Sequence record: OK272487.1
From: Escherichia phage JLBYU09
Strand: one strand, 5' to 3'
Length of the DNA: 48,988 nt
Both the position numbers and the translations under genes were made by a program. The notes beneath the pieces are model-generated. The model had not been told where the DNA came from. It ran no database searches and saw only the letters and a list, made by a program, of their open reading frames with translations. Shown here one piece after another: positions 1 to 48,988 of the stretch (positions within the stretch are counted from its first letter, which is position 1; the number at the start of each line of letters is the position of its first letter).

Positions 1-1
1 G

Positions 2-712
2 CTATTTTGCGTTTGCTTCGAAGACTGCGCGAGCAAAACCGCGCGGAGTGAGGGAGCGGATCATCTTTGTGCGAGATGATTTTCCGCCAGTTTTGGCCCA
101 GCCTGGATTATCTTTGTCATTCTCTTTCGGCAGGATTAAAGCGCGCTGAGGAATAACAAATCCGTTTCCAGTCCAAAGGCATGTTTTCTTAAAGTAGCGA
201 TCCCGCGCCGGAATAATATCAGGAAAGTCGGGATGTTTATCATCTTCCGGAAGATAGCCAGCATAATCGCACGGATGGAACGTATAATCAGGCTTGCGCC
301 ATAACGTTGACAGCTTGCCTACAGGATTCTCTATCATGTACGGAACGCCGAAATAATCAGCAATTTGCGCCGCTATTTTGCAAGTGTCGGCGGCCTCATC
401 CTGGAAAGAGGGATTCTCAAGGCGTTTTTTGGACCAATGGCGAGATCCGCTATTTGCAAGGTCAGTGCACGGCGGAAATGCCATAATGAAATCAGGCTTG
501 CCCCAATTTTCAAGTTTTGCGGTATATTTGAATAGCTCATCAATCCACACATTAACGTAAAAAATATTATCATGGATTATGCGCACTGATTGGTAATCTC
601 CATGATCTGCATCATCGTAATTAAAGCAAATGCATTTATATCCAGCATCAGCCCAATCTTTAACGGCTTTACCAGATCCATCAAACAAAGAGAATATTAA
701 ACCTTTATACAT
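2..712 (-). CDS. DNA cytosine-5 methyltransferase
   Basis: 236 aa; AdoMet motif I FSLFDGSG, catalytic motif IV AFPPC, motif VI ENP; RBS GAGGTG before the ATG at 712; stop TAG at 2-4 lies inside the conserved box that wraps the window ends. Confidence 0.75.
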   Translation of the reverse strand: MYKGLIFSLFDGSGKAVKDWADAGYKCICFNYDDADHGDYQSVRIIHDNIFYVNVWIDELFKYTAKLENWGKPDFIMAFPPCTDLANSGSRHWSKKRLENPSFQDEAADTCKIAAQIADYFGVPYMIENPVGKLSTLWRKPDYTFHPCDYAGYLPEDDKHPDFPDIIPARDRYFKKTCLWTGNGFVIPQRALILPKENDKDNPGWAKTGGKSSRTKMIRSLTPRGFARAVFEANAK

Positions 713-721
713 TTCATCACC

Positions 722-946
722 TCAAAACGGAAAGCATCTAGGGCAGTTCGGATCAAAATTGCAACCACAATCATTAACAATCATGGTTGGATCTGCAAAT
801 GCAGCGCCGCATTCATGGTCCATATCCATTTCACCCAACGCATCATCAAGCGTCCTGATTTTATATGCGACCTCAAGCGCGGCCTCTTTATTCAGTCCGG
901 CATCTTCTGCTTTTTGCAGTCGCTCAAAAAAACCGTCTTGACTCAT
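722..946 (-). CDS. hypothetical protein, Cys-rich C-terminus
   Basis: 74 aa ORF; C-terminal CGCNFDPNCPRC; ATGA start/stop overlap with the upstream small ORF. Confidence 0.5.
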   Translation of the reverse strand: MSQDGFFERLQKAEDAGLNKEAALEVAYKIRTLDDALGEMDMDHECGAAFADPTMIVNDCGCNFDPNCPRCFPF

Positions 947-1056
947 TTAATAAACTCCTTAACAACAGCAAGAATAATCACAAGCCCAGCAGTAAAAACA
1001 AGCAAACCGACAAGGCCAATCATAACACCAAATAAAATATCAAGCGCCTTAATCAT
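943..1056 (-). CDS. small hydrophobic membrane peptide (37 aa)
   Basis: Hand-translated MIKALDILFGVMIGLVGLLVFTAGLVIILAVVKEFIK; below the track size cut-off; ATGA overlap with the next gene. Confidence 0.35.
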   Translation of the reverse strand: MIKALDILFGVMIGLVGLLVFTAGLVIILAVVKEFIK

Positions 1057-1103
1057 TTATTCACCATTGATAAAATGGGAGGCGGCAACCTCCCATTGAT
1101 TAA

Positions 1104-1331
1104 TCATACAGCCTTCCAGCTTTCAATAAACATGCTGTTTTCTTCCAGAAGTTTAATCAATTCTTCGCGCGTATATTTGCGGATTTTACTACCTGGATGT
1201 GAGCCAACAACAAACACACCTTTACCACTTGTGATGGTTAACTGGTTAATTCCGCAAGATTTATCCATTTTCACGGCGACGCGGTGATGTGCATCAACAG
1301 TGTGCATGATGTTAGTGACTTTAGCTTTCAT
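1104..1331 (-). CDS. hypothetical protein
   Basis: Track ORF 1104..1364; internal ATG at 1331 is preceded by GAGGAT RBS, so the start is moved there. Confidence 0.5.
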   Translation of the reverse strand: MKAKVTNIMHTVDAHHRVAVKMDKSCGINQLTITSGKGVFVVGSHPGSKIRKYTREELIKLLEENSMFIESWKAV

Positions 1332-1374
1332 TATGCGATCCTCATTGTACTTAGTGTAGGACATTATATTTACT

Positions 1375-1590
1375 TCAAATTCTCGATCTTGTTATTGCCA
1401 ATTGCAGAATGAACGCAACGCTCTTGCGTCTCCTTGTCGCCATGAACATCAATATAATAACCAGGTATGACAGTAAAAAANNCCAATTACCACGCCAGAA
1501 GAAATAAAGGCCATGCTTGCTTCCTTTCGCGCATTTATTAGCANATCCTNCNNNGNNNTNTGTTNNNGNGGGGCAATTGTACACCCTCAA
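1375..1590 (-). CDS. hypothetical protein, interrupted by N-run
   Basis: ORF crosses the ambiguous bases 1481-1570; frame and extent uncertain. Confidence 0.25.
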   Translation of the reverse strand: MRVYNCPXXTXXXXGXANKCAKGSKHGLYFFWRGNWXFLLSYLVIILMFMATRRRKSVAFILQLAITRSRI

Positions 1591-1619
1591 AATCCACGGT
1601 ATCGGTATAGCTGTAAAAC

Positions 1620-1772
1620 TTAGAACTCATAGTCAACAACTCCAAATTCGTTAACGATTTGCGCCTTATAGAATCCGCCATTTTTCGCAAGGTTGTAGCA
1701 GGCCGCTACAGTTTCAAATTCTCGCACTTCCGGCTGGCTGTTTTCATGTTCCCAGGTAATCAGAGTAACCAT
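1620..1772 (-). CDS. small hypothetical protein (50 aa)
   Basis: Hand-translated MVTLITWEHENSQPEVREFETVAACYNLAKNGGFYKAQIVNEFGVVDYEF; first ORF downstream of promoter-like element at 1806-1850. Confidence 0.4.
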   Translation of the reverse strand: MVTLITWEHENSQPEVREFETVAACYNLAKNGGFYKAQIVNEFGVVDYEF

Positions 1773-1805
1773 TTTCAAATCCTCGCATTCGTTGTCGATG
1801 TGTGT

Positions 1806-1850
1806 AATATATCGGATTGCGAGGATTGAGTTTTAACAAAAAGTGCTATT
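1806..1850 (-). promoter_or_regulatory. conserved-box promoter-like element (box, 19-nt spacer, TATATT)
   Basis: Minus-strand AATAGCACTTTTTGTTAAAA at 1850-1831, -10-like TATATT at 1811-1806; stop TAA of gene 1850..2116 abuts the box. Confidence 0.5.
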
Positions 1851-2116
1851 TAGTCCAGGAATTCGATTTCGCGCTCGCCAGTTAACGGATCTTTAATCCA
1901 GAATCCGAGCGCCTCACCGTAAATACCGCCATAGAATCCAAGCGCCGACAGATCCTCACCTTTAACAAATACCAGATCCCCGCTACGGCTTACGTGAGAT
2001 ACGTTAACGATAACCGGAAAGGTGCGATCCTTAAATGCAGGCCGCAGGGCGTAACATCCGTTATTGAGCAAACGTGCTTTGCGCTTAACTGGAATAGGTG
2101 CATTGATTCGCGCCAT
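1850..2116 (-). CDS. hypothetical protein
   Basis: 88 aa; AAGGAG RBS before the ATG at 2116. Confidence 0.55.
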   Translation of the reverse strand: MARINAPIPVKRKARLLNNGCYALRPAFKDRTFPVIVNVSHVSRSGDLVFVKGEDLSALGFYGGIYGEALGFWIKDPLTGEREIEFLD

Positions 2117-2129
2117 CTTTATTTCTCCT

Positions 2130-2375
2130 TCATTGTTGATCGTGTTTAACGGCCATCAGAACATCACAGGACTCGTTAATGAATTTAGCCATGCGTTTAT
2201 CATCACCAACAGGTATTAGCGCGTTAAACTCGCGTTTGCTACTGAATACCGTCACTTTATGAAACGATGCGAACGGCATCGACGGGAACTCGACTGTTTG
2301 CGTCAAGATTCGCAATCCCATCTTTTTGGCCCTTATCTGGGCCTCAGCGAGTTCAAAATCCACTTCACTAATCAT
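2130..2375 (-). CDS. hypothetical protein
   Basis: 81 aa; GAGGAG RBS; ATGA overlap with upstream gene. Confidence 0.55.
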   Translation of the reverse strand: MISEVDFELAEAQIRAKKMGLRILTQTVEFPSMPFASFHKVTVFSSKREFNALIPVGDDKRMAKFINESCDVLMAVKHDQQ

Positions 2376-2644
2376 TTCTTGATCTCCTCAGCAATAAACT
2401 TCAGGACTTTGCGCAAAAACACTTCATTATTGATGGTCGCTGGCAATTCTTCTTTTACTTCTTGCGGCAGGTAAACGTTGCCATGCCAGGTTAAGCAATC
2501 GTAGTTGATACGATAAGAGCAAAGCCACTCGCAATCGTTATCCGCTTCCCAAATGCAGAGTTGCAGAACATCACCGAAATCCTCAACAGTCAGATCCAGA
2601 CCGTGACGCTTTGCAAAGTTGAAAGTGGTTTTGCTGATGTTCAT
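2372..2644 (-). CDS. hypothetical protein
   Basis: 90 aa; AGGAGA RBS; first gene after promoter-like element at 2683-2727. Confidence 0.55.
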   Translation of the reverse strand: MNISKTTFNFAKRHGLDLTVEDFGDVLQLCIWEADNDCEWLCSYRINYDCLTWHGNVYLPQEVKEELPATINNEVFLRKVLKFIAEEIKK

Positions 2645-2682
2645 TTGCTTTCTCCTGATGGGTATCTCGTTTCGATGTGTGC

Positions 2683-2727
2683 ATTATGCCGAATCCAGTC
2701 AGGCACGTTTTAACAAAAAGTGCTATT
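2683..2727 (-). promoter_or_regulatory. conserved-box promoter-like element (box, 19-nt spacer, CATAAT)
   Basis: Minus-strand AATAGCACTTTTTGTTAAAA at 2727-2708; CATAAT at 2688-2683. Confidence 0.5.
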
Positions 2728-3316
2728 TGCTTACTGGTCATTATTCCATCTATTCCATTAATCAGGAATAACAGGAATAACTCATTCGCGATCACCTGGA
2801 TTGGGAGACTTTGAGTTTGGTCAATTTTAATCAAGTGATTAACTTTTTGTGTGGAGGGGATAGAGAAACGCTGCCCTCTTGCATCCTTTCCGACAATCCT
2901 GGCGCGCGCATCTGTTATTTCTGTTCCCCATGTTATCTCAAATAAGCCTCCGCACTTTTAGATAACAGAATCGGCGTTCATCAACAAAAAGAACAAAATA
3001 AAANTNANATATNNACNNANNANATCAATAAGTTAGTTATATATGTATTTATATTTGTTATTTACTGTTGAGCTTGTTCTATGGGTATATGGTGGAGTGG
3101 TATTGTTTGTGGTGATATGTATGTGTGATTGTATATTTTTTAATCAATGGTGATATGTGGTGATTTTTGTATGTATATATATAGGTATGGAGCAATCCTC
3201 CGTCAACCAAGTCAACAAGGTCATTTTTAAAAGAAAAACCAATGACTTAACTGAAGCATTTTGTTATCTTTAAACGCGCCACATGCCAAAAATTGTTATT
3301 AAAACACAAAAATACA

Positions 3317-3345
3317 TTGACACGTATGAAAGGCAAGGCAATAAT
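3317..3345 (+). promoter_or_regulatory. sigma70-like promoter (TTGACA, 17 nt, AATAAT)
   Basis: TTGACA at 3317-3322, AATAAT at 3340-3345; at the right end of AT-rich region A, before the first rightward gene. Confidence 0.5.
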
Positions 3346-3381
3346 GCATCCAGTTTAAACGCAACAAAAGGAGTAGACGCC

Positions 3382-3903
3382 ATGAGCGAAGAAAATATTA
3401 GCACCATGTCGCGTAGTGAGTTCTGCGATATGCTTCGCAGCCTGGGCGCGGCAATTGGTAGCGGTGAGCGTAATGATGTATTCATGCCAGCACTTTTTTT
3501 GTGCGCTAACGTGGAGAACGGCGAAGCAATTACGGCATCGTACATGCGCCAAGTGGTCAACCGTGTGCCAGAAGTAAAGCAAAAAGGCGTGATCAGCATT
3601 AAGCGAAAGGTGACTGATGAGGGTGATGGCTTTGTGTTTACGCTCACTGAAGCCAAAAGCAAGCCTCGCGTTCTGACTGGTGAAGAAATCGACGAGATCG
3701 CAGAAAAGCGCGCAGAGAAGGCGGTAAGCAAAATTCTTAATCACCTGGTAAACGTAATGCCAAATATCACAGACCTGGAAGGCGACAAACTTGCTGGGGC
3801 GTGTGAGGCTATCGGGCGCTACCAGGATATGATTCGTAAACTCGCTGGAGGAAAAGAGGATGAATANNNNATNNNNNNNNNTNTTNAAACTCGAAAACGA
3901 TAA
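3382..3903 (+). CDS. hypothetical protein (C-terminus crosses N-run)
   Basis: Track ORF 3283..3903; start moved to ATG 3382 after AAAGGAG RBS; N-run 3867-3893. Confidence 0.5.
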   Translation: MSEENISTMSRSEFCDMLRSLGAAIGSGERNDVFMPALFLCANVENGEAITASYMRQVVNRVPEVKQKGVISIKRKVTDEGDGFVFTLTEAKSKPRVLTGEEIDEIAEKRAEKAVSKILNHLVNVMPNITDLEGDKLAGACEAIGRYQDMIRKLAGGKEDEXXXXXXXXTRKR

Positions 3904-3969: not shown

Positions 3970-4863
3970 ATGTTAAAACTTGCTGACATTAAATTCCCGA
4001 TCACCTTCGAATCTCGCGGCATTGGTCATTACATTTTTACCGATGAAAAAACATGCCATAAGGTTGATATGAATAGCGACAAACTAACCCCATCAACAAT
4101 GGAGATTGAACACTTTATTGATGCACACAATACGCACTACAACGCACTTAAAGACTATGGCTATGCAATGCCAGGCTACACATGTTTGCACTACAAGCCA
4201 TATAAGGGCCAGGTGTTACCAGTGCGCTCACCGGAACGCGCAGAGATTCCGATGGTCAATATGAAAACCTGCGACTACAAAAAGCTGTGGTGCTTAAGTC
4301 TGGACAATATCAAGTATCCGATCACGTTCCACACGACTGGTAAGTCAACGATTCGCTACACATCGCGCGACAATGGCGTTTATAGCGATGGTACGAAATC
4401 AGGGTTGAAAGTTGATTTCTTTGTCAATGGTCACAACAAGTTCAATCCGCACAATGAAAAGGATAAGGTGTACTACGTGGAAGATATTACAAAACACTTG
4501 TTTGGAGAAACACCATTCGGCGGCGGTAAGACGTCAATTCAACAAATCATTGGCGAGGAGATCCACAAGGCAGCCGTTGAAATGAAAGCGCCTGGAGGAT
4601 GGCGTATTGATAAGAGCGCAATTGTCTATCAAGAAATAGTAACGCAGGGCGCAATTGAAGACATGCCACTTGCCGCCACGCTAAAAGGCGTCCAAATTGC
4701 GGATGGCACATGGTTTGAATTAACGGCAAAACCAAAGACTATCGAGATTCATGATGATGTTGTTATTCTTCTGCTTCATTACGGTAGCGCAAAAAACCGT
4801 ACCGTTGCGGGTGAGATTAGCATCAAGCGCGGAACGATGGTTAAGTGGAATGTCAAAGTGTAA
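3970..4863 (+). CDS. hypothetical protein with internal duplication
   Basis: 297 aa; AGGAGA RBS; two related modules (IKFPITFESRG and IKYPITFHTTG); stop TAA abuts the conserved box. Confidence 0.6.
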   Translation: MLKLADIKFPITFESRGIGHYIFTDEKTCHKVDMNSDKLTPSTMEIEHFIDAHNTHYNALKDYGYAMPGYTCLHYKPYKGQVLPVRSPERAEIPMVNMKTCDYKKLWCLSLDNIKYPITFHTTGKSTIRYTSRDNGVYSDGTKSGLKVDFFVNGHNKFNPHNEKDKVYYVEDITKHLFGETPFGGGKTSIQQIIGEEIHKAAVEMKAPGGWRIDKSAIVYQEIVTQGAIEDMPLAATLKGVQIADGTWFELTAKPKTIEIHDDVVILLLHYGSAKNRTVAGEISIKRGTMVKWNVKV

Positions 4864-4906
4864 ATAGCACGAATTGTTAAAACTCAAATGTGGGGCCAGG
4901 TATAAT
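4863..4906 (+). promoter_or_regulatory. conserved-box promoter-like element (box, 18-nt spacer, TATAAT)
   Basis: AATAGCACGAATTGTTAAAA at 4863-4882; TATAAT at 4901-4906 sits in the loop of GGCC...GGCC. Confidence 0.5.
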
Positions 4907-5925: not shown

Positions 5926-6135
5926 TCTGGTTACTTTTAATCTTTGTCACAAGTTACAATTCCGCCGCTATTGAATCGCAAGAGTTCCACGGCGAATCAA
6001 GATGCCAGGAAGCACGANNACNNGNNNNNCNNNANNTCNACGGNCGAATCAAGATGCCAGGAAGCACGAAAACAAGTTGTTCTCCACATGTCAGATAGTG
6101 GGAAAGATGTAACAGCGCTATGCGTTCGTAAATAG
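5922..6135 (+). CDS. small membrane protein (MIWLL family), interrupted by N-run and tandem duplicate
   Basis: ATG 5922 overlaps the upstream stop, GGAGGA RBS; N-terminus MIWLLLIFVTSYNS; frame ambiguous across Ns 6018-6043. Confidence 0.3.
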
Positions 6136-6175
6136 CACTTTTTGCAAAAACACATTATCGGGCTTGCGGTATAGT
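6131..6175 (+). promoter_or_regulatory. conserved-box promoter-like element (box variant TTTTTGCAAAAA, 19-nt spacer, TATAGT)
   Basis: AATAGCACTTTTTGCAAAAA at 6131-6150; TATAGT at 6170-6175 in the loop of GGGCTT...AAGCCC. Confidence 0.5.
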
Positions 6176-6847: not shown

Positions 6848-7438
6848 ATGAAACGCGACATTATCATTCTTAACGGACCGCCAGGAGTTGGCAAAGATAC
6901 GCTTGCGGCATACTTAACGGGTCATCGTTACGCAGCGGTTAAAGCGTCATTTAAACAGCCTATGTTCGATATTGCATTCTCCATGCTTGGCGTTTACCGA
7001 TATGACGAGTTCATTGATCTGTATAACGACCGTGAGCAGAAAGAAAAGCCTCAAGCAATCTTGCAAGGTAAGTCTCCGCGACAATTCATGATCTGGATTA
7101 GCGAAGAAGTCATGAAGCCAGCTTTTGGCGAGCAATATTTTGGGAATCGCATGGTTGAGCAAGTACACGAGATGTACAGAGATTTAGCTGTTGTAATTAG
7201 TGATGGCGGATTCCCTGAAGAAATCAAGCCGCTCGTTAAGGCAGGCCATGAAGTTCACATTTGCCGACTGCATCGCGAAGGATTCACGTTTGATGGCGAT
7301 TCACGAAACTATATTGACCTGAGCGGATACCATCACCGAGTCAAGCATTACGACTTCACAATGATTGATGGCGAGCCAGAAAAGACTGTTGACGAGATCA
7401 TCAAAGCGGTGCAGTGGAAACACACAAAGATTGAATAG
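6848..7438 (+). CDS. P-loop nucleotide kinase (dNMP-kinase-like)
   Basis: Walker A LNGPPGVGKDT with GKDT and a GKSP motif, recalled as resembling T4 gp1 dNMP kinase; start moved to ATG 6848 after GGAG RBS; stop TAG inside the conserved box. Confidence 0.55.
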   Translation: MKRDIIILNGPPGVGKDTLAAYLTGHRYAAVKASFKQPMFDIAFSMLGVYRYDEFIDLYNDREQKEKPQAILQGKSPRQFMIWISEEVMKPAFGEQYFGNRMVEQVHEMYRDLAVVISDGGFPEEIKPLVKAGHEVHICRLHREGFTFDGDSRNYIDLSGYHHRVKHYDFTMIDGEPEKTVDEIIKAVQWKHTKIE

Positions 7439-7478
7439 CACGAATTGCTAAAAGCGGGGCGCAATGCCTCGCTATAAT
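7434..7478 (+). promoter_or_regulatory. conserved-box promoter-like element (box, 19-nt spacer, TATAAT)
   Basis: AATAGCACGAATTGCTAAAA at 7434-7453; TATAAT at 7473-7478. Confidence 0.5.
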
Positions 7479-8491: not shown

Positions 8492-8749
8492 ATGGCTAAA
8501 AGCAATCGTAAAATGTTGATTAACGCATTCGAAAAGGCAGCGCTTGAGCGTGGCTGGAATGACTCATTTCACACAGCAAACTGTATCCGCCGTTACGGAT
8601 TCAAGAATTGCCGCTCCTGGGCGCGTCAAATGGCTTCATGGTATGATCTTGATGCGCATTACCTTGATATGGATTGCGCCCTTGTTGAAATGATTGAGCA
8701 GGCCGCATTAGAGGATNGANCANNNNCGCANTNNNNNNTNGACCATTAA
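8492..8749 (+). CDS. hypothetical protein (3-prime end crosses N-run)
   Basis: AAAGGAGGAAGC RBS; Ns 8717-8738; true stop may be 8800-8802. Confidence 0.5.
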   Translation: MAKSNRKMLINAFEKAALERGWNDSFHTANCIRRYGFKNCRSWARQMASWYDLDAHYLDMDCALVEMIEQAALEDXXXXXXXXDH

Positions 8750-8800: not shown

Positions 8801-8845
8801 AATAGCACTTTTTGTTAAAACTTCCGCGAGGGCATTTGTTAAAGT
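8801..8845 (+). promoter_or_regulatory. conserved-box promoter-like element (box, 19-nt spacer, TAAAGT)
   Basis: AATAGCACTTTTTGTTAAAA at 8801-8820; TAAAGT at 8840-8845; stops TAA/TAG abut the box. Confidence 0.45.
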
Positions 8846-9096: not shown

Positions 9097-9328
9097 TCAC
9101 GATTAACCTGTCAGAGCAGCANGCGNGNATNATGNNNGNNNNCAGGCAACGGTTAAAATCCCTGATACGGTAGCGCGTGAAGTTTTTAACCAGCTTGAAC
9201 ACGCATTTGTTCCTGTTGGCACTGATCAGGCAGAAACAGCGGCTTGGTTCGGAGAGAACGGATACAGAGATCAGCAAGTCGAAAACTGGAAGCGCAAAAA
9301 CGAGACTGCGGAGGAGGCCGGATTATGA
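9093..9328 (+). CDS. hypothetical protein (interrupted by N-run)
   Basis: ATG 9093 overlaps the upstream stop; Ns 9121-9143 shift the apparent frame; ends TGA 9326-9328, overlapping the next ATG. Confidence 0.3.
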
Positions 9329-9838: not shown

Positions 9839-10068
9839 TGTTTGGAATGAACGAGGCACAATTCAACGCTGCAAAACGCCAGGCTAAGAAGTGCGGCGAG
9901 GCAATGAAGGCGGATGTTGAAAAGCGCGGGAAGTATGTTGATGAAGTCATGAAGGGCATTATTGCCGAACATTATCAGCCAGTTGCGCCAATGCTGACAA
10001 TTACCCAATTCATCTGGTTGTGTGGTTATCTTCGTGGGAGATGGGGAAACGCATTTGACCGCGAATGA
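9838..10068 (+). CDS. hypothetical protein
   Basis: 76 aa track ORF. Confidence 0.5.
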   Translation: MFGMNEAQFNAAKRQAKKCGEAMKADVEKRGKYVDEVMKGIIAEHYQPVAPMLTITQFIWLCGYLRGRWGNAFDRE

Positions 10069-10232
10069 TTGACAACGATTTCCTGATTGGTTAGCATATT
10101 CAGCGTTTACATAAGAGCGGCATTAGTGCCGAACGGGTGGCGCGGTTGCCACGCAACAATGGCGATGTGCTGGAGGTTATTGCGATGCAATATAATCCGT
10201 AAGACGTATCGCCTTTTTTTATAGGTGAATAT

Positions 10233-10608: not shown

Positions 10609-10844
10609 GTTCTGTAATTATTGGTTTGGTTGCTTTAATCATTGGTGTTCTAATCGGCTTTGTTGCTGTATCTTTCGTGGTGGCTGTTGGTGTTCGCTAT
10701 AAGTCAAAAAAAGGTGAATTTGCTTTAGCGTTTTGGGATGAAGATCAGAAAGTTTGGCAGGTTCGCGGTCACTACTTATCAATCGGTGGCAGGATTCACA
10801 GCACTATGAAGACAAATCCAGAAAAAGTAAAATACAAGTATTGA
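10605..10844 (+). CDS. membrane protein
   Basis: 79 aa; N-terminal hydrophobic segment VIIGLVALIIGVLIGFVAVSFVVAV. Confidence 0.5.
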   Translation: MSSVIIGLVALIIGVLIGFVAVSFVVAVGVRYKSKKGEFALAFWDEDQKVWQVRGHYLSIGGRIHSTMKTNPEKVKYKY

Positions 10845-10851
10845 ACAACTA

Positions 10852-10875
10852 CCCGCCAAATGGCGGGTTTTTTAT
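10852..10875 (+). terminator. rho-independent terminator
   Basis: Hairpin CCCGCC-aaat-GGCGGG followed by a T-run; separates the early block from the packaging genes. Confidence 0.6.
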
Positions 10876-10924
10876 TGCCTGCAATTTGTCTATAATGATG
10901 CTTTGTTATAAAGGAGGGCGCATT

Positions 10925-11446
10925 ATGGCTAAAAACGTTGAGCCAGCAGTAAAGGCTTGCAATTTTAAAAAACTATATAATAAGCAATATGGCGATATAG
11001 CAAAAATGACAAAGGCGCACAAGTACACGCCGGAGCAGGTATTTGATCTGGCTGTTCGTTACTTTACGTGGGCTGAGGAAAACCATATACAGGCTGCGGA
11101 AACGGCATCCTTTCAGGGTGACGTATACGAAAGTAAGATTCACAAGCCGCGCGTGTTCACCTTAAATGGATTCCGCTTATTCGCTGGCCTTTCTGCCTCC
11201 GTACTTGAAAAATGGCGACGTGAGCCAGGATTCAGCGATGTTATGGACTTTATCGACGGCGTTGTTTACGAGCAAAAATTCCAGCTTGCCGCAAACAATA
11301 TTGTTAACGCTGGATTCATTGGCAAAGAGATCGGCATTGAAAAGCCAGCTACCGTTACCATTGAGAATAACACAAGCGCCAGCGTTGACGCTGTAACGGC
11401 GGAGGAAGTAAAAGAGGCGGTAATTGACATTCTGGAGAAGATATAA
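10925..11446 (+). CDS. terS: terminase small subunit (putative)
   Basis: Called from position directly upstream of the large terminase and stop/start overlap at 11446; start moved to ATG 10925 after AAAGGAGGG RBS. Confidence 0.5.
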   Translation: MAKNVEPAVKACNFKKLYNKQYGDIAKMTKAHKYTPEQVFDLAVRYFTWAEENHIQAAETASFQGDVYESKIHKPRVFTLNGFRLFAGLSASVLEKWRREPGFSDVMDFIDGVVYEQKFQLAANNIVNAGFIGKEIGIEKPATVTIENNTSASVDAVTAEEVKEAVIDILEKI

Positions 11447-13014
11447 TGCTGATTTGGGAAGACTTAACAGCGGCGCAAAAACGCGCCGTTAAGGAAATGA
11501 GCGAATATTCATTCGAAAAGATGATCCGCATTTGGTTTCAACTTCTCCAGGGGCAAAGGTTTTTAGGAAACTGGCATTTCAGTTACCTATGCAGCGAAGT
11601 TGAAAAAATCATCAAAGGCGAGTCACAGAATGTAATTTTCAACATAACGCCAGGCAGTGGTAAAACAGAGATATTCTCGATCCACATGTCACCTTATGCG
11701 TCATTGAAAAGTAAGAAGGTGAGAAATCTTAATTTGTCGTTTAGTGATGGCCTTGTCCAGCAGAATAGCAACCGCATCAAAGAGATTATTGGTTCTCCAG
11801 AATGGCAGGAGCTATGGCCTGGAAAGTTGGCAAAGGCGAGCGCAAAGGATTTGATTGTAACTGATGGCGGCAAGGTTAAATTACAAGTTAACTCGCGTTC
11901 TATCGGAGGTCAGGTTACTGGTCTGCGTGGTGGCTACATGGACGATGGTTTTACTGGTATGTTGGTTCTTGATGATCCAGACAAGCCGGATGACATGCTT
12001 TCTAAGGTGAAGCGCGAAGCCGGACACATGCGCCTAAAGAACACGGTGCGATCGCGTCGAATGAAGGACACCACGCCAATTGTGATGGTTCAGCAACGTC
12101 TACACGTCAATGATTCAACATGGTTCATGACAAACGGCGGCATGGGCGGCATCAAGTTTAAGGTGGTTAGTATTCCGGCGCTCGTTACTAAGGAATATCG
12201 CGAAACGCTTCCTGATTGGTTAAAGCCTGAGTTTGATCGCGATGTTTTGTCCAGTAAGCCAGTGATGATTGATGGCGTTGCTCATTATTCATTCTGGCCT
12301 GCTAAGGAAAGCGCGGATGAATTGCTTGCGCTTCGCAATGCCGATCCGTACACGTTCGCTAGTCAGTATCAGCAACAGCCTGTTGCGCTTGGCGGTAACG
12401 TGTTTAAAACAGAGTGGTTTCAGTATTACGGAAGCAGCGAGAAATGCACGCTACCAAAACCGGATCGCTTTGAATATACATTTATCACGGTTGATACCGC
12501 GCAGAAAACAGGGGAGCTTAACGACTATTCCGTGATCTGTTATTGGGGGATGTATAAAGATCGTGTCTACTTCATTGATGGCGTTCGCGGGAAATGGGAA
12601 GCACCGGACCTTGAGACGAATTTTGTTGCATTCGTTAATCAGTGCTGGAAGCGCAATAAAGAATGCGGAACGTTGCGAAGGATTCATGTTGAAGATAAAT
12701 CGTCTGGCACTGGATTGATTCAGAGTGCGGCGAAAAAAATCATGATCAAGATCAATCCCGTTCAGCGCGATAAAGACAAGGTTACTCGTGCAATGGACGC
12801 AGCACCAGTAATGCGCGCCGGACGCGTGGCACTTCCAGAATCTCATTCTATGCTGGCTGAGATACTCGCTGAAGTTGCGGCGTTCACATTCGATGATTCG
12901 CATCCTCATGATGATATTGTTGATAACATCATTGATGCGGTTAACATTGAAATGAACATGGCAGATGATCCGGTTGGAAGAATGAAAAAATTGGCAGGTT
13001 TGCGGAACAAATAG
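11446..13014 (+). CDS. terL: terminase large subunit
   Basis: 522 aa; P-loop ITPGSGKTE near the N-terminus; size and position typical of TerL. Confidence 0.8.
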   Translation: MLIWEDLTAAQKRAVKEMSEYSFEKMIRIWFQLLQGQRFLGNWHFSYLCSEVEKIIKGESQNVIFNITPGSGKTEIFSIHMSPYASLKSKKVRNLNLSFSDGLVQQNSNRIKEIIGSPEWQELWPGKLAKASAKDLIVTDGGKVKLQVNSRSIGGQVTGLRGGYMDDGFTGMLVLDDPDKPDDMLSKVKREAGHMRLKNTVRSRRMKDTTPIVMVQQRLHVNDSTWFMTNGGMGGIKFKVVSIPALVTKEYRETLPDWLKPEFDRDVLSSKPVMIDGVAHYSFWPAKESADELLALRNADPYTFASQYQQQPVALGGNVFKTEWFQYYGSSEKCTLPKPDRFEYTFITVDTAQKTGELNDYSVICYWGMYKDRVYFIDGVRGKWEAPDLETNFVAFVNQCWKRNKECGTLRRIHVEDKSSGTGLIQSAAKKIMIKINPVQRDKDKVTRAMDAAPVMRAGRVALPESHSMLAEILAEVAAFTFDDSHPHDDIVDNIIDAVNIEMNMADDPVGRMKKLAGLRNK

Positions 13015-14363: not shown

Positions 14364-15127
14364 TGAAAGTGAATGGCGTCGTTAAACAATGGCGCTTTCC
14401 TGAAGCAAGCGAGCGGCAATTTAGCCGCTCAATTCAGGAGGCAATTAGAGATCTTGTGGTTCTCATGCGCAAGCGTACAAAAGCGATGAAGTTTGACGCA
14501 ACAGATAATGAGATCAACAGCGCAGAAGATGAAATTAACAACTTGGCAACTGACCTTATAGCTGGCATTGTTTCCACTCTTCCTGCAATAGCGTTGACCA
14601 TCTATAAATTCAATGCGAAGCAGTTCATAAATGTTGCCAAGTCAACTGGCGGAAAGGATAACACGGCGGTAATTGTTTTGATCGCGGTTGGCGCTAACGC
14701 TAACGAGGAGTGGTATCAGACGCTTTACGGTCAATGGCACGGCCTTACAGAATCATCGCTAAGAAAGTTATTCACAAATATTGTGTCTGACTGGTCAACA
14801 AACATTCGCAATGCAAACTTTCGCGGAAGCAATGATAAACAGGTTAATGATCTTGCAGAAAAGAGATTTGCTGTTTATAGCTCCTGGGGTAAAACGAGAT
14901 CAGAAAACATTATCGGCGCGTGGAATAGTCGCCTGATGCGCCAGCGCCTTTATGATGCTAAGGTGACTCATTATTTCTGGCATGGAATGTTAGATGATAG
15001 AGAGCGCTTGCAGCATGTGTTATGGGAAGGTAAAAGAATAGCGCTTGATGCAATTCATGATTTCCCTGGTGAGCCGTGGGGTTGCCGTTGCTGGGCGATT
15101 CCAGATTGGAATAGTAAAGGAGAATAA
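14363..15127 (+). CDS. head morphogenesis / minor capsid protein (SPP1 gp7 or Mu F-like)
   Basis: Position after portal; C-terminal GEPWGCRCW motif. Confidence 0.55.
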   Translation: MKVNGVVKQWRFPEASERQFSRSIQEAIRDLVVLMRKRTKAMKFDATDNEINSAEDEINNLATDLIAGIVSTLPAIALTIYKFNAKQFINVAKSTGGKDNTAVIVLIAVGANANEEWYQTLYGQWHGLTESSLRKLFTNIVSDWSTNIRNANFRGSNDKQVNDLAEKRFAVYSSWGKTRSENIIGAWNSRLMRQRLYDAKVTHYFWHGMLDDRERLQHVLWEGKRIALDAIHDFPGEPWGCRCWAIPDWNSKGE

Positions 15128-17248: not shown

Positions 17249-17331
17249 CACAAAATTATGTTGCACGTTTAACAAAAAATGCTATCATTGTGGCGTTACA
17301 TACTAACAGCCTTTATATATGGAGGAAGAAA

Positions 17332-18682: not shown

Positions 18683-19099
18683 ATGGTTGATGAATTTTTC
18701 ACTGACGCAGAAATCACGCAGCAAATCGTGAAATTAGCTCCACCGATGAAACAGATTGATCCAGATTTAATGGTGACATGGATTGATCTGGCAAAGGAAT
18801 TTGTTTGCAAGAAGCGGTTTAAAGAATCATATCCAAAAGCGGTTGCTCTTTATACGTTGCACCTTATGACGCTTGATGGAGCCATGAAGCAAGAAGGGGA
18901 AAGCGTAGAAAGTTACTCGCGGCGAGTTGCGTCATTTTCCCTGACTGGTGAATTTAGCCAGACTTTTGATCGAGTGTCAGGCGACTCTGGCGGAAAAGAG
19001 ATTAGACAAACTCCCTGGGGGAAAATGTACGAAACGCTAAATCGTAAGAAAGGCGGTGGATTTGGCCTTGTGACTGGATTTCGGAGGCGCTGCAAATGA
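18683..19099 (+). CDS. head-tail connector / adaptor (putative)
   Basis: 138 aa; position between capsid and tail genes; GGAGGAAA RBS. Confidence 0.4.
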
Positions 19100-20988: not shown

Positions 20989-21058
20989 TTACTGTACAAT
21001 CATGCTACACGATTCATAATCAATTCTTTTAACAAAAAGTGCTATCAAGGAGAAAGAA

Positions 21059-31562: not shown

Positions 31563-31790
31563 TCACAGACTGCAATCAGCGTTTTTAAAGTTATCAATAC
31601 TTACCCACTGAAAATTAAACGGATAGCCAGCCTTAACAAGAGTGCGGTCGCCAACTCGTTTCACTCCGAAAATAGCAACTGAATACTGCATTCCGCTATT
31701 TTCATAAATAGCCGTGCATTCACGTTTAGGCATATTTGCACATCCAGTCAGTGCAACGGCTGCAATCAAAACGGCGATTAACTTTTTCAT
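31563..31790 (-). CDS. cor: Cor-like superinfection-exclusion lipoprotein
   Basis: 75 aa; signal peptide plus lipobox LTGC; convergent with the receptor-binding gene, as recalled for T1 and phi80 cor; AAGGAGA RBS. Confidence 0.55.
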   Translation of the reverse strand: MKKLIAVLIAAVALTGCANMPKRECTAIYENSGMQYSVAIFGVKRVGDRTLVKAGYPFNFQWVSIDNFKNADCSL

Positions 31791-31820: not shown

Positions 31821-31864
31821 ACTATACACGATCTTGCGGTGGGCGTTTAGCAAAAAGTGCTATT
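31821..31864 (-). promoter_or_regulatory. conserved-box promoter-like element (box variant, 19-nt spacer, TATAGT)
   Basis: Minus-strand AATAGCACTTTTTGCTAAA at 31864-31846; TATAGT at 31826-31821; upstream of the Cor-like gene. Confidence 0.5.
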
Positions 31865-45440: not shown

Positions 45441-45839
45441 ATGAGAAAGTTATCAATAATCGCAATCGCTGTTATTTTGTCTGGATGTTCAAGCGTTATG
45501 CCACTGACCGGATTAATCGGTAGTAAGCCGGAAATCACAGCACAGGCAGGAGCGGAGAACGTAAAGCAGACCGTTGGCGTTACCGCAAAGCAGGACACCA
45601 GCACAAAACAGGAAACTACAATAAATGAATCTGCGGTTGATAAGGTGGACAATTCCAGCAAGAAGGATTTTACTACGTCAACCATTCAGGCTAACACCAT
45701 CAAGGCTGATAAAATCCAGGTCGTGCAAGGTGGGCAAAGGAAGTGGTACGATCCTATAATCTATTGCGCGGCAATTTTTAGTGGTCTTTTGTCAATGCTT
45801 TACTTTTCCTACCGCAAAGGCAACAAAAAGGAGGCTTAA
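45441..45839 (+). CDS. unimolecular spanin (lipoprotein with C-terminal TMD)
   Basis: 132 aa; lipobox LSGC and C-terminal TMD IIYCAAIFSGLLSMLYFSY; matches the recalled T1 gp11 architecture. Confidence 0.65.
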   Translation: MRKLSIIAIAVILSGCSSVMPLTGLIGSKPEITAQAGAENVKQTVGVTAKQDTSTKQETTINESAVDKVDNSSKKDFTTSTIQANTIKADKIQVVQGGQRKWYDPIIYCAAIFSGLLSMLYFSYRKGNKKEA

Positions 45840-45866: not shown

Positions 45867-46073
45867 TCAAATCTTGAAAGCTGTTTCCGCTATAATCATT
45901 CTCGACAAGAATGTAAGNACNTNTCTTCNTNNNATCNNNNANNNNNNNNTNTNNTCNTAACGATTTATTTCAAACGTGCTACCATCTTCTCTTGTCGCAG
46001 TTCCTTTGTCGTTGAAAACATCAAAAGTTACATTGATGATTTTTGTTTCTTTCTTTGTTACTTTGATAGCCAT
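45867..46073 (-). CDS. hypothetical protein (interrupted by N-run)
   Basis: Track ORF 45867..46088; start moved to ATG 46073 after GAGGA RBS; Ns 45918-45958. Confidence 0.4.
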   Translation of the reverse strand: MAIKVTKKETKIINVTFDVFNDKGTATREDGSTFEINRXXXXXXXXXXXRXXLTFLSRMIIAETAFKI

Positions 46074-46106: not shown

Positions 46107-46151
46107 AATATACCCGATACGAGATCAGGTGTTTTAACAAAAAGTGCTATT
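46107..46151 (-). promoter_or_regulatory. conserved-box promoter-like element (box, 19-nt spacer, TATATT)
   Basis: Minus-strand AATAGCACTTTTTGTTAAAA at 46151-46132; TATATT at 46112-46107. Confidence 0.5.
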
Positions 46152-46260
46152 CAATACGCTTTACAGTAACCAACAAAACTCCGTCCTCATCACACAAATT
46201 ATGCTCTGATATATCAAACGCTCGCATGTCAGAATGAATGAGCGTTAACATTGCGTGCAT
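46147..46260 (-). CDS. small hypothetical protein
   Basis: Internal start of track ORF 46147..46341, chosen to avoid overlap with the upstream gene; stop TAG inside the conserved box. Confidence 0.35.
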   Translation of the reverse strand: MHAMLTLIHSDMRAFDISEHNLCDEDGVLLVTVKRIE

Positions 46261-46267
46261 GAAGTCG

Positions 46268-46660
46268 TCATGTGAGATTGAACTTACGGCGCAGAACTTC
46301 AATATTTTGTCTATTAGCATTTGACGTAAACAATTCTTCATCGCTCATTTCTCCGATCCGTAAAGCATCTCTTACCCATTCGTTTTGCATACCTTCCAGG
46401 CTGTAAAGTTCAAACGAGAAAGGGCGATTTGCTGATCCTTTCTTACACCAGAACTTTCCACCAACTCCATCAAGATAACCAGCGGTCATCATTCTTGCGC
46501 AAAATTCTTTTGAAACGGCACTTGCAAACATCCTCGGAGTAAATCCTGCGGCCCTTGCGAGCCGCTCACATTCTCTGTGCTGAAAGATAAATTTTGCTAT
46601 ATGTTGACGTGTAAACCATTCGAATGACTCACACCATCGATACAGATCCAGAAGAAACAT
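46268..46660 (-). CDS. hypothetical protein
   Basis: 130 aa; co-directional and tightly packed with the large P-loop gene. Confidence 0.5.
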   Translation of the reverse strand: MFLLDLYRWCESFEWFTRQHIAKFIFQHRECERLARAAGFTPRMFASAVSKEFCARMMTAGYLDGVGGKFWCKKGSANRPFSFELYSLEGMQNEWVRDALRIGEMSDEELFTSNANRQNIEVLRRKFNLT

Positions 46661-48273: not shown

Positions 48274-48318
48274 ATAATACCGCACCAATGCTACCCGCAT
48301 TTAACAAAAAATGCTATT
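48274..48318 (-). promoter_or_regulatory. conserved-box promoter-like element (box variant, 19-nt spacer, TATTAT)
   Basis: Minus-strand AATAGCATTTTTTGTTAAAT at 48318-48299; TATTAT at 48279-48274 in the loop of GCGG...CCGC. Confidence 0.5.
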
Positions 48319-48535
48319 TGATCCGCTCTATGCTAACTAAGATTTTTTCTGGTTCCTTTGCACTATGGCAATGCGCGGTTACAGAATCAACAAAATCAAA
48401 GTAAAGTGATTTGTGATATGAGAATCCAATCAGCCACCCAACCATCGTTTTCTTTATTGGCCTGACTATATCGCCAGGCTTAAAGGTTTTTGTTGCCGAA
48501 TAAGTCACCTTATAGCGATATTCAGTCTTGATCAC
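48314..48535 (-). CDS. hypothetical protein
   Basis: 73 aa; overlapping start with the upstream gene. Confidence 0.45.
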   Translation of the reverse strand: MIKTEYRYKVTYSATKTFKPGDIVRPIKKTMVGWLIGFSYHKSLYFDFVDSVTAHCHSAKEPEKILVSIERIK

Positions 48536-48918
48536 TTATACATAGCCTCAAACAAATGACAGCCACCAGCGGAAAATCCTACTTCTTCGCGGTATAGCGT
48601 CCAGCGGTCGCCAGCTTCATCAAAAACATAACCAGCAACAGCACCAAGAGCGCGACCTTGCTCAATCTGGTAACGCTTTCCTTCTTTGAAATGTTTTTTG
48701 CACGGGATCTTGTGATCTACAAAGGTGCATTTAATTGTTTTTGTCTTGATATGACGATAGTCAGACTCAACAGCGTTTTGCCACTTGCTACCCTTTGTAA
48801 TGCTCTTTACCTGGAATTGCTCCAACTCGATCACATCATCGCTACCAGCAATTTTTTCGTATACAACTTTATAACGACCGTTCATCAAAACGTTGGTTTT
48901 ATTGCAGATAACTTTCAT
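48532..48918 (-). CDS. hypothetical protein
   Basis: 128 aa; AAAGGAG RBS; first gene downstream of the box that wraps the window ends. Confidence 0.5.
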   Translation of the reverse strand: MKVICNKTNVLMNGRYKVVYEKIAGSDDVIELEQFQVKSITKGSKWQNAVESDYRHIKTKTIKCTFVDHKIPCKKHFKEGKRYQIEQGRALGAVAGYVFDEAGDRWTLYREEVGFSAGGCHLFEAMYK

Positions 48919-48949
48919 CTTTTATTTCTCCTTTCGTTTCGGTGAAGTG

Positions 48950-48988
48950 ATTATGCCAGGCTTTTACACCTGGCTTTTAACAAAAAGT
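48950..48988 (-). promoter_or_regulatory. conserved-box promoter-like element split across the window ends
   Basis: Minus-strand box AATAGCACTTTTTGTTAAAA spans 6..1 and 48988..48975; spacer is the 6-bp-stem hairpin GCCAGG...CCTGGC; CATAAT at 48955-48950. Confidence 0.5.

Follow-up and report, generated by a model that had tools for sequence, protein, structure and literature searches.

The window, that is, the whole stretch of 48,988 nt that was analysed (record OK272487.1, Escherichia phage JLBYU09), very likely represented the circular assembly of a virulent T1-like siphophage (Drexlerviridae, Tempevirinae, Hanrivervirus) with the JLBYU41 genotype. In this reading, to which we assigned a probability of about 0.9, its start and end were an arbitrary linearisation point and not DNA ends. 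All of the observations were explained by known biology together with assembly practice, and the finding was in this sense already known and ordinary.

A conserved box divided by the ends of the window

The 3' end of the window read ...GCCAGGCTTTTACACCTGGC TTTTAACAAAAAGT, with the last piece at 48975-48988, and its 5' end (1-6) was GCTATT; the letters from 48950 to 48988 were ATTATG CCAGGCTTTTACACCTGGC TTTTAACAAAAAGT. The sequence-only reading of this DNA had proposed that the joined ends rebuild a 20-nt box. Accordingly, positions 48975-48988 and 1-6 together made TTTTAACAAAAAGTGCTATT with 0 mismatches, a copy that was seen only in a scan of the circularised sequence. According to our own arithmetic, which assumed uniform base use, the chance that a 6-nt start would complete the box, given the 14-nt end, was about 1/4096.

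On the minus strand, which is the transcribed one here, the joined copy was AATAGCACTTTTTGTTAAAA, and the boundary cut it between positions 6 and 7. Along this strand the box (6..1, 48988..48975) was followed by a 19-nt hairpin spacer (48974..48956), CATAAT (48955..48950), AGGAG (48932..48928) and ATG (48918..48916). The corresponding letters across the join were AATAGCACTTTTTGTTAAAA, the 19 nt GCCAGGTGTAAAAGCCTGG, CATAAT, CACTTCACCGAAACGAA, AGGAG, AAATAAAAG and the ATG at 48918, and the distance from the first base of the box to this ATG was exactly 76 nt. The split module sat between two consecutive minus-strand genes, and its anatomy, with a conserved leader from CATAAT to the Shine-Dalgarno sequence, was identical to that of the other copies (Table 1).

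It had also been read from the letters that the methyltransferase stop codon (2-4) lay inside the box and that CATAAT and the ribosome-binding site of gene 48532-48918 came after it on the minus strand. Both observations held, the stop being a minus-strand TAG within the GCTATT part and the two signals standing at the spacing typical of the family. However, the accompanying statement that a gene end was split by the boundaries was wrong: no codon or gene was divided, and the stop codon was wholly inside the window, 1 nt from the cut, so that the cut lay 1 nt beyond the first CDS. Only the box was split, together with the link from the methylase gene to the next gene of the same minus-strand string.

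A search for terminal direct repeats of 8-400 nt gave none, and the two ends had no common sequence of 8 nt or more. The GC skew was negative on either side of 48988/1 and changed sign only near 3 kb. Since the skew had the same sign at both sides, the boundary was located within one continuous leftward gene string.

Table 1. Coordinates of the features discussed in the text (window numbering; a dot marks features without strand)
Feature	Position	Strand	Evidence or remark
DNA methyltransferase CDS, 236 aa, Dcm-like	2..712	-	phrog_757 'DNA methyltransferase', E=7.8e-86
Split box, start part	1..6	-	+ strand GCTATT, minus strand AATAGC; holds methyltransferase TAG stop (4..2)
Split box, end part	48975..48988	-	+ strand TTTTAACAAAAAGT, minus strand ACTTTTTGTTAAAA
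Hairpin GCCAGG-N8-CCTGGC, fills the 19-nt box-CATAAT spacer	48955..48974	-	centroid fold -13.7 kcal/mol
-10-like hexamer CATAAT, 19 nt downstream of box	48950..48955	-	spacing as in most copies
Shine-Dalgarno AGGAG of gene 48532-48918	48928..48932	-	sequence
CDS, 128 aa, next after methylase in the minus string	48532..48918	-	phrog_2684, E=3e-48
Box, perfect	1831..1850	-	
Box, perfect; first module of leftward string at divergent region	2708..2727	-	
Box, GAA subtype, 3 mismatches	4863..4882	+	
Box, 2 mismatches	6131..6150	+	
Box, GAA subtype, 4 mismatches	7434..7453	+	
Box, perfect	8801..8820	+	
Box, opposed to late genes, directly upstream of major capsid gene	17267..17286	-	equivalents T1 15087(-), TLS 15043(-)
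Box, opposed to late genes, 12 nt 5' of tape-measure chaperone ATG	21027..21046	-	equivalent T1 18851(-)
Box, 2 mismatches, upstream of cor-like gene 31563-31790 (-)	31845..31864	-	
Box, 2 mismatches, divergent gap between Cro-like regulator gene (-) and helicase gene (+)	39327..39346	+	
Box, perfect; TAG is stop of ORF 41430-41849	41845..41864	+	
Box, perfect	42886..42905	+	
Box, perfect; TAG is stop of ORF 46147-46341	46132..46151	-	
Box, 2 mismatches; TAG is stop of ORF 48314-48535	48299..48318	-	
Divergent non-coding region, ~640 bp, between leftward and rightward gene strings	2645..3282	.	positional homologue of T1/TLS record starts
Small terminase, P22 gp3-like	10754..11446	+	Pfam GP3_package E=6e-9; PDB 3P9A E=8.5e-15; phrog_606
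Large terminase	11446..13014	+	Pfam Terminase_6C; phrog_38 E=8e-106
N breakpoint	1544..1569	.	546 bp of JLBYU41 (1612-2157) replaced by 26 nt; 520 bp missing
N breakpoint	3867..3883	.	263 bp of JLBYU41 (4455-4717) replaced by 17 nt; 246 bp missing
N spacer within 51-nt tandem duplication, absent from JLBYU41	6018..6036	.	
N breakpoint	9135..9142	.	36 nt of JLBYU41 replaced by 8 nt; 28 bp missing
N breakpoint, lateral tail-fibre gene	37159..37171	.	1,584 bp of JLBYU41 (37946-39529) replaced by 13 nt; 1,571 bp missing

The translation of ORF 2..712 showed, by eye, the motifs LFDGSG, FPPC and ENP. The gene corresponded to JLBYU41_1 and was syntenic with the dcm gene of phage TLS, it had no Pfam match at E<=0.01 and no PDB relative, and the exact protein was matched only in JLBYU41 and in one ENA contig. 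On the other side of the join, CDS 48532..48918 corresponded to JLBYU41_86 and was a homologue of T1 ST7, and the same position was held by gp73 in TLS.

Adjacency of the two ends in related phages

To query the junction, 742 nt from each end were joined into one sequence of 1,484 nt. The joined ends were contiguous as a single piece in 82 phage records, all of them T1-like Tempevirinae and mostly Hanrivervirus (pSf-1, aaroes, herni, damhaus and others). In these records the distance between the record start and the join varied between about 3 kb and about 48 kb, indicating that such genomes have been linearised by the community at many different places. Moreover, the joined 200 nt (100 + 100) were found exactly (200/200) in an independent MEGAHIT metagenome contig of 12.8 kb (ENA ERZ27230757:k119_75922).

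The closest relative was JLBYU41 (OK272479.1; Hanrivervirus, Tempevirinae, Drexlerviridae), which differed from the window by 0 substitutions in 48,906 aligned columns and had the same gene order round the whole circle. With the first half of the window as the query, JLBYU41 was 99.8% identical over 100% of the query (the differences were Ns only), and pSf-1, the type member of the genus, was 96.0% identical over 92%. The window was rotated by 70 nt relative to the 51,277-bp JLBYU41 record: window position 1 was JLBYU41 position 71 and window position 48988 was position 70, with neither gap nor overlap. Conversely, the ends of the JLBYU41 record (51277/1) were bridged within the window at 48918/48919. 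Thus, the two records bridged each other's ends, and each linearisation closed the other.

The taxonomy lines of the matches agreed on Hanrivervirus and Drexlerviridae, and the earlier assignment of the DNA to a T1-like phage was borne out both by this genome-wide similarity and by collinear T1 homologues. The gene order was that of T1 and TLS: small early genes, the small and large terminase genes (TerS, TerL), portal, head, tail, recombination and lateral fibre genes, then primase, regulator, helicase, dam and lysis genes, and finally a leftward helicase string. At the locus of the join, TLS (NC_009540) had the same order of helicase, gp72, gp73 and dcm as the window, and it carried a perfect box at 45831(-), internal in its genome, whose TAG was the dcm stop. 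In T1 (NC_005833), ST7, ST6 and ST5 were collinear across the join, and T1 had no dcm gene at this locus.

These comparisons also bore on the possibility that the window had been taken out of a larger molecule, whether prophage, bigger phage or partial contig, so that its ends would not be neighbours. Nothing was found in favour of it. The whole 51.3-kb JLBYU41 circle was represented in order and its ends met without a gap, the close relatives were all virulent phages of 46-52 kb, and both ends were joined exactly in the independent metagenome contig. We therefore considered an excerpt extremely improbable, in agreement with the earlier view that the window was a whole replicon.

Packaging and the position of the cut

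Headful phages assemble as circles. The small terminase of the window belonged to the P22 gp3 type, with a core homologous to P22 gp3 (PDB 3P9A); its start was annotated in JLBYU41 at the equivalent of window position 10895. The large terminase had no match in the PDB search. TerS and TerL were 53% and 65% identical, respectively, to their T1 counterparts, and together with the P22 gp3 matches of TerS this placed the terminase in the headful type. Genomes of T1 and TLS have been reported to carry terminal redundancy and to be permuted only in part, 3-4 headfuls being packaged from one pac site (PMC11447400). For TLS virion DNA, restriction mapping revealed a pac fragment in submolar amount, a redundancy of about 1 kb per headful and 3-4 headfuls or permuted classes (PMC11447400). 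The JLBYU41 genome was 'circularized upon de novo assembly' according to its authors (PMC10373560), circularised assembly was likewise reported for 22 other T1-like phages, and PhageTerm found no fixed termini in KanT1.

By analogy with these relatives, a P22-gp3-type terminase would be expected to cut the virion DNA of the phage in the window out of concatemers, starting at pac and proceeding onward by headfuls. The packaged molecules would be terminally redundant and partially permuted, and assemblies of such molecules would for that reason close into a circle. The redundancy, the permutation and the pac site of this phage were thus inferred from relatives only, and the earlier term 'circular-permuted' should be qualified accordingly, since permutation in T1-like phages is partial and starts from pac. 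The amount of redundancy differed between these relatives (2.8 kb in T1 and about 1 kb in TLS).

The first packaging cut would be expected, from synteny with T1 and TLS, in the divergent region at about 2.65-3.28 kb, which is about 2.8 kb from the window boundary. The T1 record, in which a repeat_region at 1..2800 marked the 2.8-kb terminal repeat, started between ST1(-) and ST77(+), and the TLS record started between gp86(-) and gp01(+). Both of these experimentally oriented records thus began at the pac-proximal end in the divergent region, whereas in the window the equivalent point lay about 2.8 kb to the right of the start. TLS 194-315 matched window 2984-3103 (E=5e-10), and two anchors, the flanking box (2707-2727) and this conserved TLS block, put TLS position 1 near window 2790-2850; since the alignment between the anchors was weak, this placement should be taken as approximate and inferential. 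The GC skew changed sign at the same region. In T1 and TLS the pac end was located outside the terS gene. The P22-type pac sequence AAGATTTATCTG was also considered as a marker; with up to 2 mismatches it had 8 matches against 6.4 expected, none of them in terS or in the divergent region. It was not enriched and gave no guide to pac in this phage.

We also weighed the alternative that the DNA had fixed physical ends at the window boundaries, either cos ends or exact direct terminal repeats that had been trimmed off the record, and that the rebuilt box was coincidental. Nothing spoke for it directly. A few related records were cut less than 800 bp away (JLBYU41 and SFP17 at -70 nt, grams at -395 nt and Henu8 at about +766 nt), which could be read as a shared end. 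However, the cut divided a 20-nt element that was intact at this locus in every relative examined, and it interrupted a string of minus-strand genes along which the GC skew was continuous. The lack of a terminal repeat and the different cut positions of most relatives did not correspond to cos ends or direct terminal repeats. Additionally, T1 and TLS, whose ends have been mapped, were pac-headful phages with ends in another region, and a small terminase of the P22 gp3 type did not fit fixed termini. Thus, this alternative appeared very improbable. Since the homologous position was internal in T1 and TLS and their pac ends were elsewhere, the cut in the window was not a physical end.

The proposal that the linearisation point was arbitrary was therefore correct in the biological sense, but the point was probably not a random one. 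The window was cut 1 nt outside its first CDS and JLBYU41 exactly at the ATG of its last CDS, which made it probable that an annotator or a pipeline had chosen the place.

Completeness of the sequence

The window had been described as a complete genome. The circle was closed and all of JLBYU41 was represented in order, but the word 'complete' was doubtful, since 2,289 bp were missing and the lateral tail-fibre gene was broken. The window contained 126 Ns in about ten patches, and it was shorter than JLBYU41 by these 2,289 bp at five N-marked breakpoints. There were five larger structural differences from JLBYU41, each at an N patch: segments of 520, 246, 28 and 1,571 bp were lacking, and a tandem duplication of +51 nt was extra. 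A further small duplication (+24 nt) was also extra in the window. The breakpoint at 3867..3883 removed the JLBYU41 gene _13 and most of a box copy, and the one at 37159..37171 broke the reading frame of the lateral tail-fibre gene. Altogether, two of the 17 JLBYU41 box copies were lost or garbled in the window. The tail-fibre junction of the window was absent from 50,697 phage records and from IMG/VR.

The called bases within the N patches were compared with the two alternative JLBYU41 continuations. In our own reading, those of two patches were largely the positions where both continuations agreed, and those of two other patches matched neither continuation. The idea that the patches were sequence blended with a shifted copy of itself was rejected, as no shift within +/-3 kb explained them.

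It could be argued that the window was no draft, edited or mixed consensus but faithfully gave the whole genome of a JLBYU41 deletion variant, of natural or laboratory origin, from which the lateral tail fibre and small accessory genes had been lost. Relatives did vary in length at the same places; EC147 was even shorter in the tail-fibre region, and Henu8-type genomes lacked most of the 520-bp segment. However, 0 substitutions were accompanied by at least 8 structural differences, every breakpoint fell in a patch with 50-70% N, and N patches existed without an indel as well. The genes with broken frames were the tail fibre and, through the 28-nt loss, JLBYU41_28. Moreover, the junctions were unique among phage records and IMG/VR, and in two patches the called bases were largely those shared by both continuations. 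On balance, a true deletion variant seemed rather unlikely. The window seemed to be a consensus of the JLBYU41 genotype (draft, mixed or edited) more than a clean natural variant, and its content was probably not that of a faithful full-length genome.

Box copies and the module at the junction

Besides the copy at the junction, 13 further box copies (up to 3 mismatches), of which 7 were perfect, were located within the window, against 0.00 expected from 100 shuffles. Our own scans gave 15 copies in the window, 17 in JLBYU41, 16-18 in T1 and 17-20 in TLS, the T1 and TLS counts varying with the mismatch limit. Among IMG/VR contigs, the exact 20-mer was matched in at least 120 stretches; the contigs were mostly 44-53 kb long and nearly all of T1-like size.

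The box was the published 21-nt direct repeat of the Drexlerviridae and hence an already known element. German et al. 2024 described the TLS repeat with the consensus aaATAGCACnnnTTGnTAAAA and 21 copies, 18 of them intergenic (PMC11447400). The repeat was oriented along transcription, lay about 76 nt 5' of start codons and was also found in T1, Rtp and Rogue1 (PMC11447400). Its function was left open by these authors, who proposed a stoperator, an enhancer site or an UP-like element (PMC11447400). The box of the window was like the published repeat in sequence (TTT subtype, 20/20), orientation, intergenic place, spacing from the start codon (about 76 nt) and number of copies (15-21 per genome), with no essential difference, and the joined copy agreed with all specified positions of the consensus aaATAGCACnnnTTGnTAAAA. 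Four features could be added to the published description: a -10-like hexamer followed the box at a fixed distance of 19 nt, hairpins were enriched downstream, stop codons fell within the box, and conserved inverse copies stood 5' of late genes.

Upstream genes often ended in a TAG or TAA stop that belonged to the box. In most copies of the window, T1 and TLS, a hexamer of the TAnnnT type stood at the fixed distance of 19 nt. The placement of the hairpin varied by copy, either within the spacer, as at the junction, or around the hexamer. In the T1 annotation, terminators were given at the same position after several boxes.

At the junction, the 83-nt context of the hairpin had a folding z of -3.3. 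Among Hanrivervirus, Warwickvirus and Tlsvirus, the box and ATAAT were invariant at this locus, while the stems were GCCAGG/CCTGGC, GCCCGAC/GTCGGGC and GCCGGAT/ATCCGGC, such that the letters varied among genera and the pairing was retained by compensatory change. The hairpin was annotated as an ARNold terminator in phage G29-2. No U-tract followed it on the transcribed strand, where the tail was AUAAUCACUU, and a terminator scan called neither strand. As for the promoter, TTGTTA was found 22 nt upstream of CATAAT and no -35 hexamer was present at 16-18 nt, so that the junction did not have a canonical sigma-70 promoter. A scan of JLBYU41 1-3900, covering the junction and four modules, with sigma-70 and terminator consensus sequences called no promoter or terminator at any module. 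A likeness to sigma-54 promoters (TAGCAC...TTGC against TGGCAC-N5-TTGC, by eye) was discarded because the spacing was 2 nt too short. No transcription-start mapping for T1-like phages was found in the literature searched.

The box module would most likely act as a terminator-promoter boundary between transcription units. Namely, a leaky terminator hairpin would overlap a promoter, and the box would be the upstream recognition or enhancer site for that promoter. A different explanation was that the split box was not a promoter-associated DNA site but had its role in the RNA of read-through transcripts, for instance being processed there or, together with the hairpin, stabilising 3' ends. In favour of such a role, the 40 nt downstream of the boxes folded far better than random 40-mers (Mann-Whitney p=5e-5 in the window, 4e-6 in T1 and 6e-7 in TLS), and the pairing of the junction hairpin was kept across genera through changes on both sides. 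However, the TAnnnT hexamer stayed 19 nt from the box whether the hairpin came before it or around it, and copies in inverse orientation were conserved upstream of late genes. The latter fitted a DNA-binding site better than an RNA signal, and we considered the RNA role improbable, although by no means negligible.

Less probably than not, the box could be an operator or activator site of a phage-encoded DNA-binding protein and not a host UP element; the Cro-like regulator encoded at 38841-39314 would be one such candidate, and the start codon of its own gene abutted a box copy. The box, the covarying hairpin and the -10 hexamer at a fixed distance might then form a phage-specific terminator-promoter unit that has no -35 element.

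Implications

The value of the finding was mainly practical, in that the sequence should be handled as a circle. A linear scan would overlook or misinterpret the box module that the ends divide, as well as the connection from the methylase gene to the gene that follows it. Positions 1 and 48988 had no biological meaning, and the packaging start should be sought near 2.8 kb. Moreover, the sequence was not a clean reference, since it had N patches and a broken tail-fibre gene and was 2.3 kb short of a genome to which it was otherwise identical, and conclusions on gene content or completeness drawn from the window need to be checked against OK272479.1. As for the biology of the family, if the box were an operator or activator site of a phage protein, the unit would time about 15-20 transcription units across all Drexlerviridae.

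Divergent region and methyltransferase genes

The sign of the GC skew switched at the divergent non-coding region, which was rich in AT and carried short repeats, namely two copies of TGGTGATATGT (at 3110 and 3148) and a tandem repeat of CAGGAATAA (2763-2780). Part of this region aligned with the start of the TLS record, which points to it as a candidate pac and early-promoter region. The genome also had two DNA methyltransferase genes, one for a Dam homologue and the other Dcm-like. At the locus of the latter, TLS likewise had a Dcm-like gene, whereas T1 lacked one.

Coordinates of the features discussed (window positions unless a genome is named)
Feature	Position	Strand	Remark
Divergent non-coding region	2645-3282		640 bp
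Dcm-like gene	2-712	-	At window start
Dam homologue	41924-42625	+	66% identity to T1 ST20
Lateral tail-fibre gene remnant	36928-37813	-	Counterpart of JLBYU41_68 (798 aa)
N patches	1481-1482, 1544-1569, 3004-3023, 3867-3886, 6018-6044, 8717-8740, 9122-9142, 37122-37199, 45918-45957
Cro-like regulator gene	38841-39314		phrog_2856; transcribed divergently
Box copy	39327-39346 (within 39315-39403)		Adjoins RBS and start codon of Cro-like regulator gene
Box copies	17267-17286, 21027-21046	-	Opposed to late operon
Equivalent copies, T1	15068-15087, 18832-18851		Opposed to late operon
Equivalent copy, TLS	15024-15043		Opposed to late operon

Differences from JLBYU41 and related records

Only the N- and C-terminal remnants of the lateral tail-fibre gene were left in the window, fused out of frame, and 1,571 bp were absent in comparison to JLBYU41_68. 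This junction was not found in any other phage record or IMG/VR contig. The window contained 126 Ns clustered in about ten short patches, each 50-70% N and interspersed with called bases. Each indel that set the window apart from JLBYU41, to which it was otherwise identical base for base, fell at such a patch, and some patches were located at sites without an indel. The patches may have originated from a mixed-read consensus, a draft assembly or deliberate editing.

Separately, about 20 unannotated "Campylobacter phage" records among MG065636-MG065685 were 92-98% identical to the coliphage group of the window; they probably reflect either a mis-assigned host or T1-like contamination.

Box copies and their possible roles

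The 20-nt box also occurred once, without mismatch, at 10067-10086 of a viral contig (IMGVR_UViG_648019609_000001) whose size, 174,436 bp, was well outside the T1-like range. By eye, the 19-nt spacer of the modules at 1850(-) and 2727(-) was complementary to the Shine-Dalgarno region downstream (TCCTCGC/GCGAGGA and CCTGA/TCAGG). Such pairing could mask the RBS in read-through transcripts.

The box copy beside the Cro-like regulator gene could allow autoregulation. On the helicase side, the box spacing rule predicts a start at ATG 39404, rather than at TTG 39338 or at the start annotated in JLBYU41 (window 39356).

The copies opposed to the late operon sat immediately upstream of two genes, those for the major capsid protein and the tape-measure chaperone, and were kept across three genera, those of the window, T1 and TLS. 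Such conservation points to one of two things, an orientation-independent DNA-binding site or antisense promoters.
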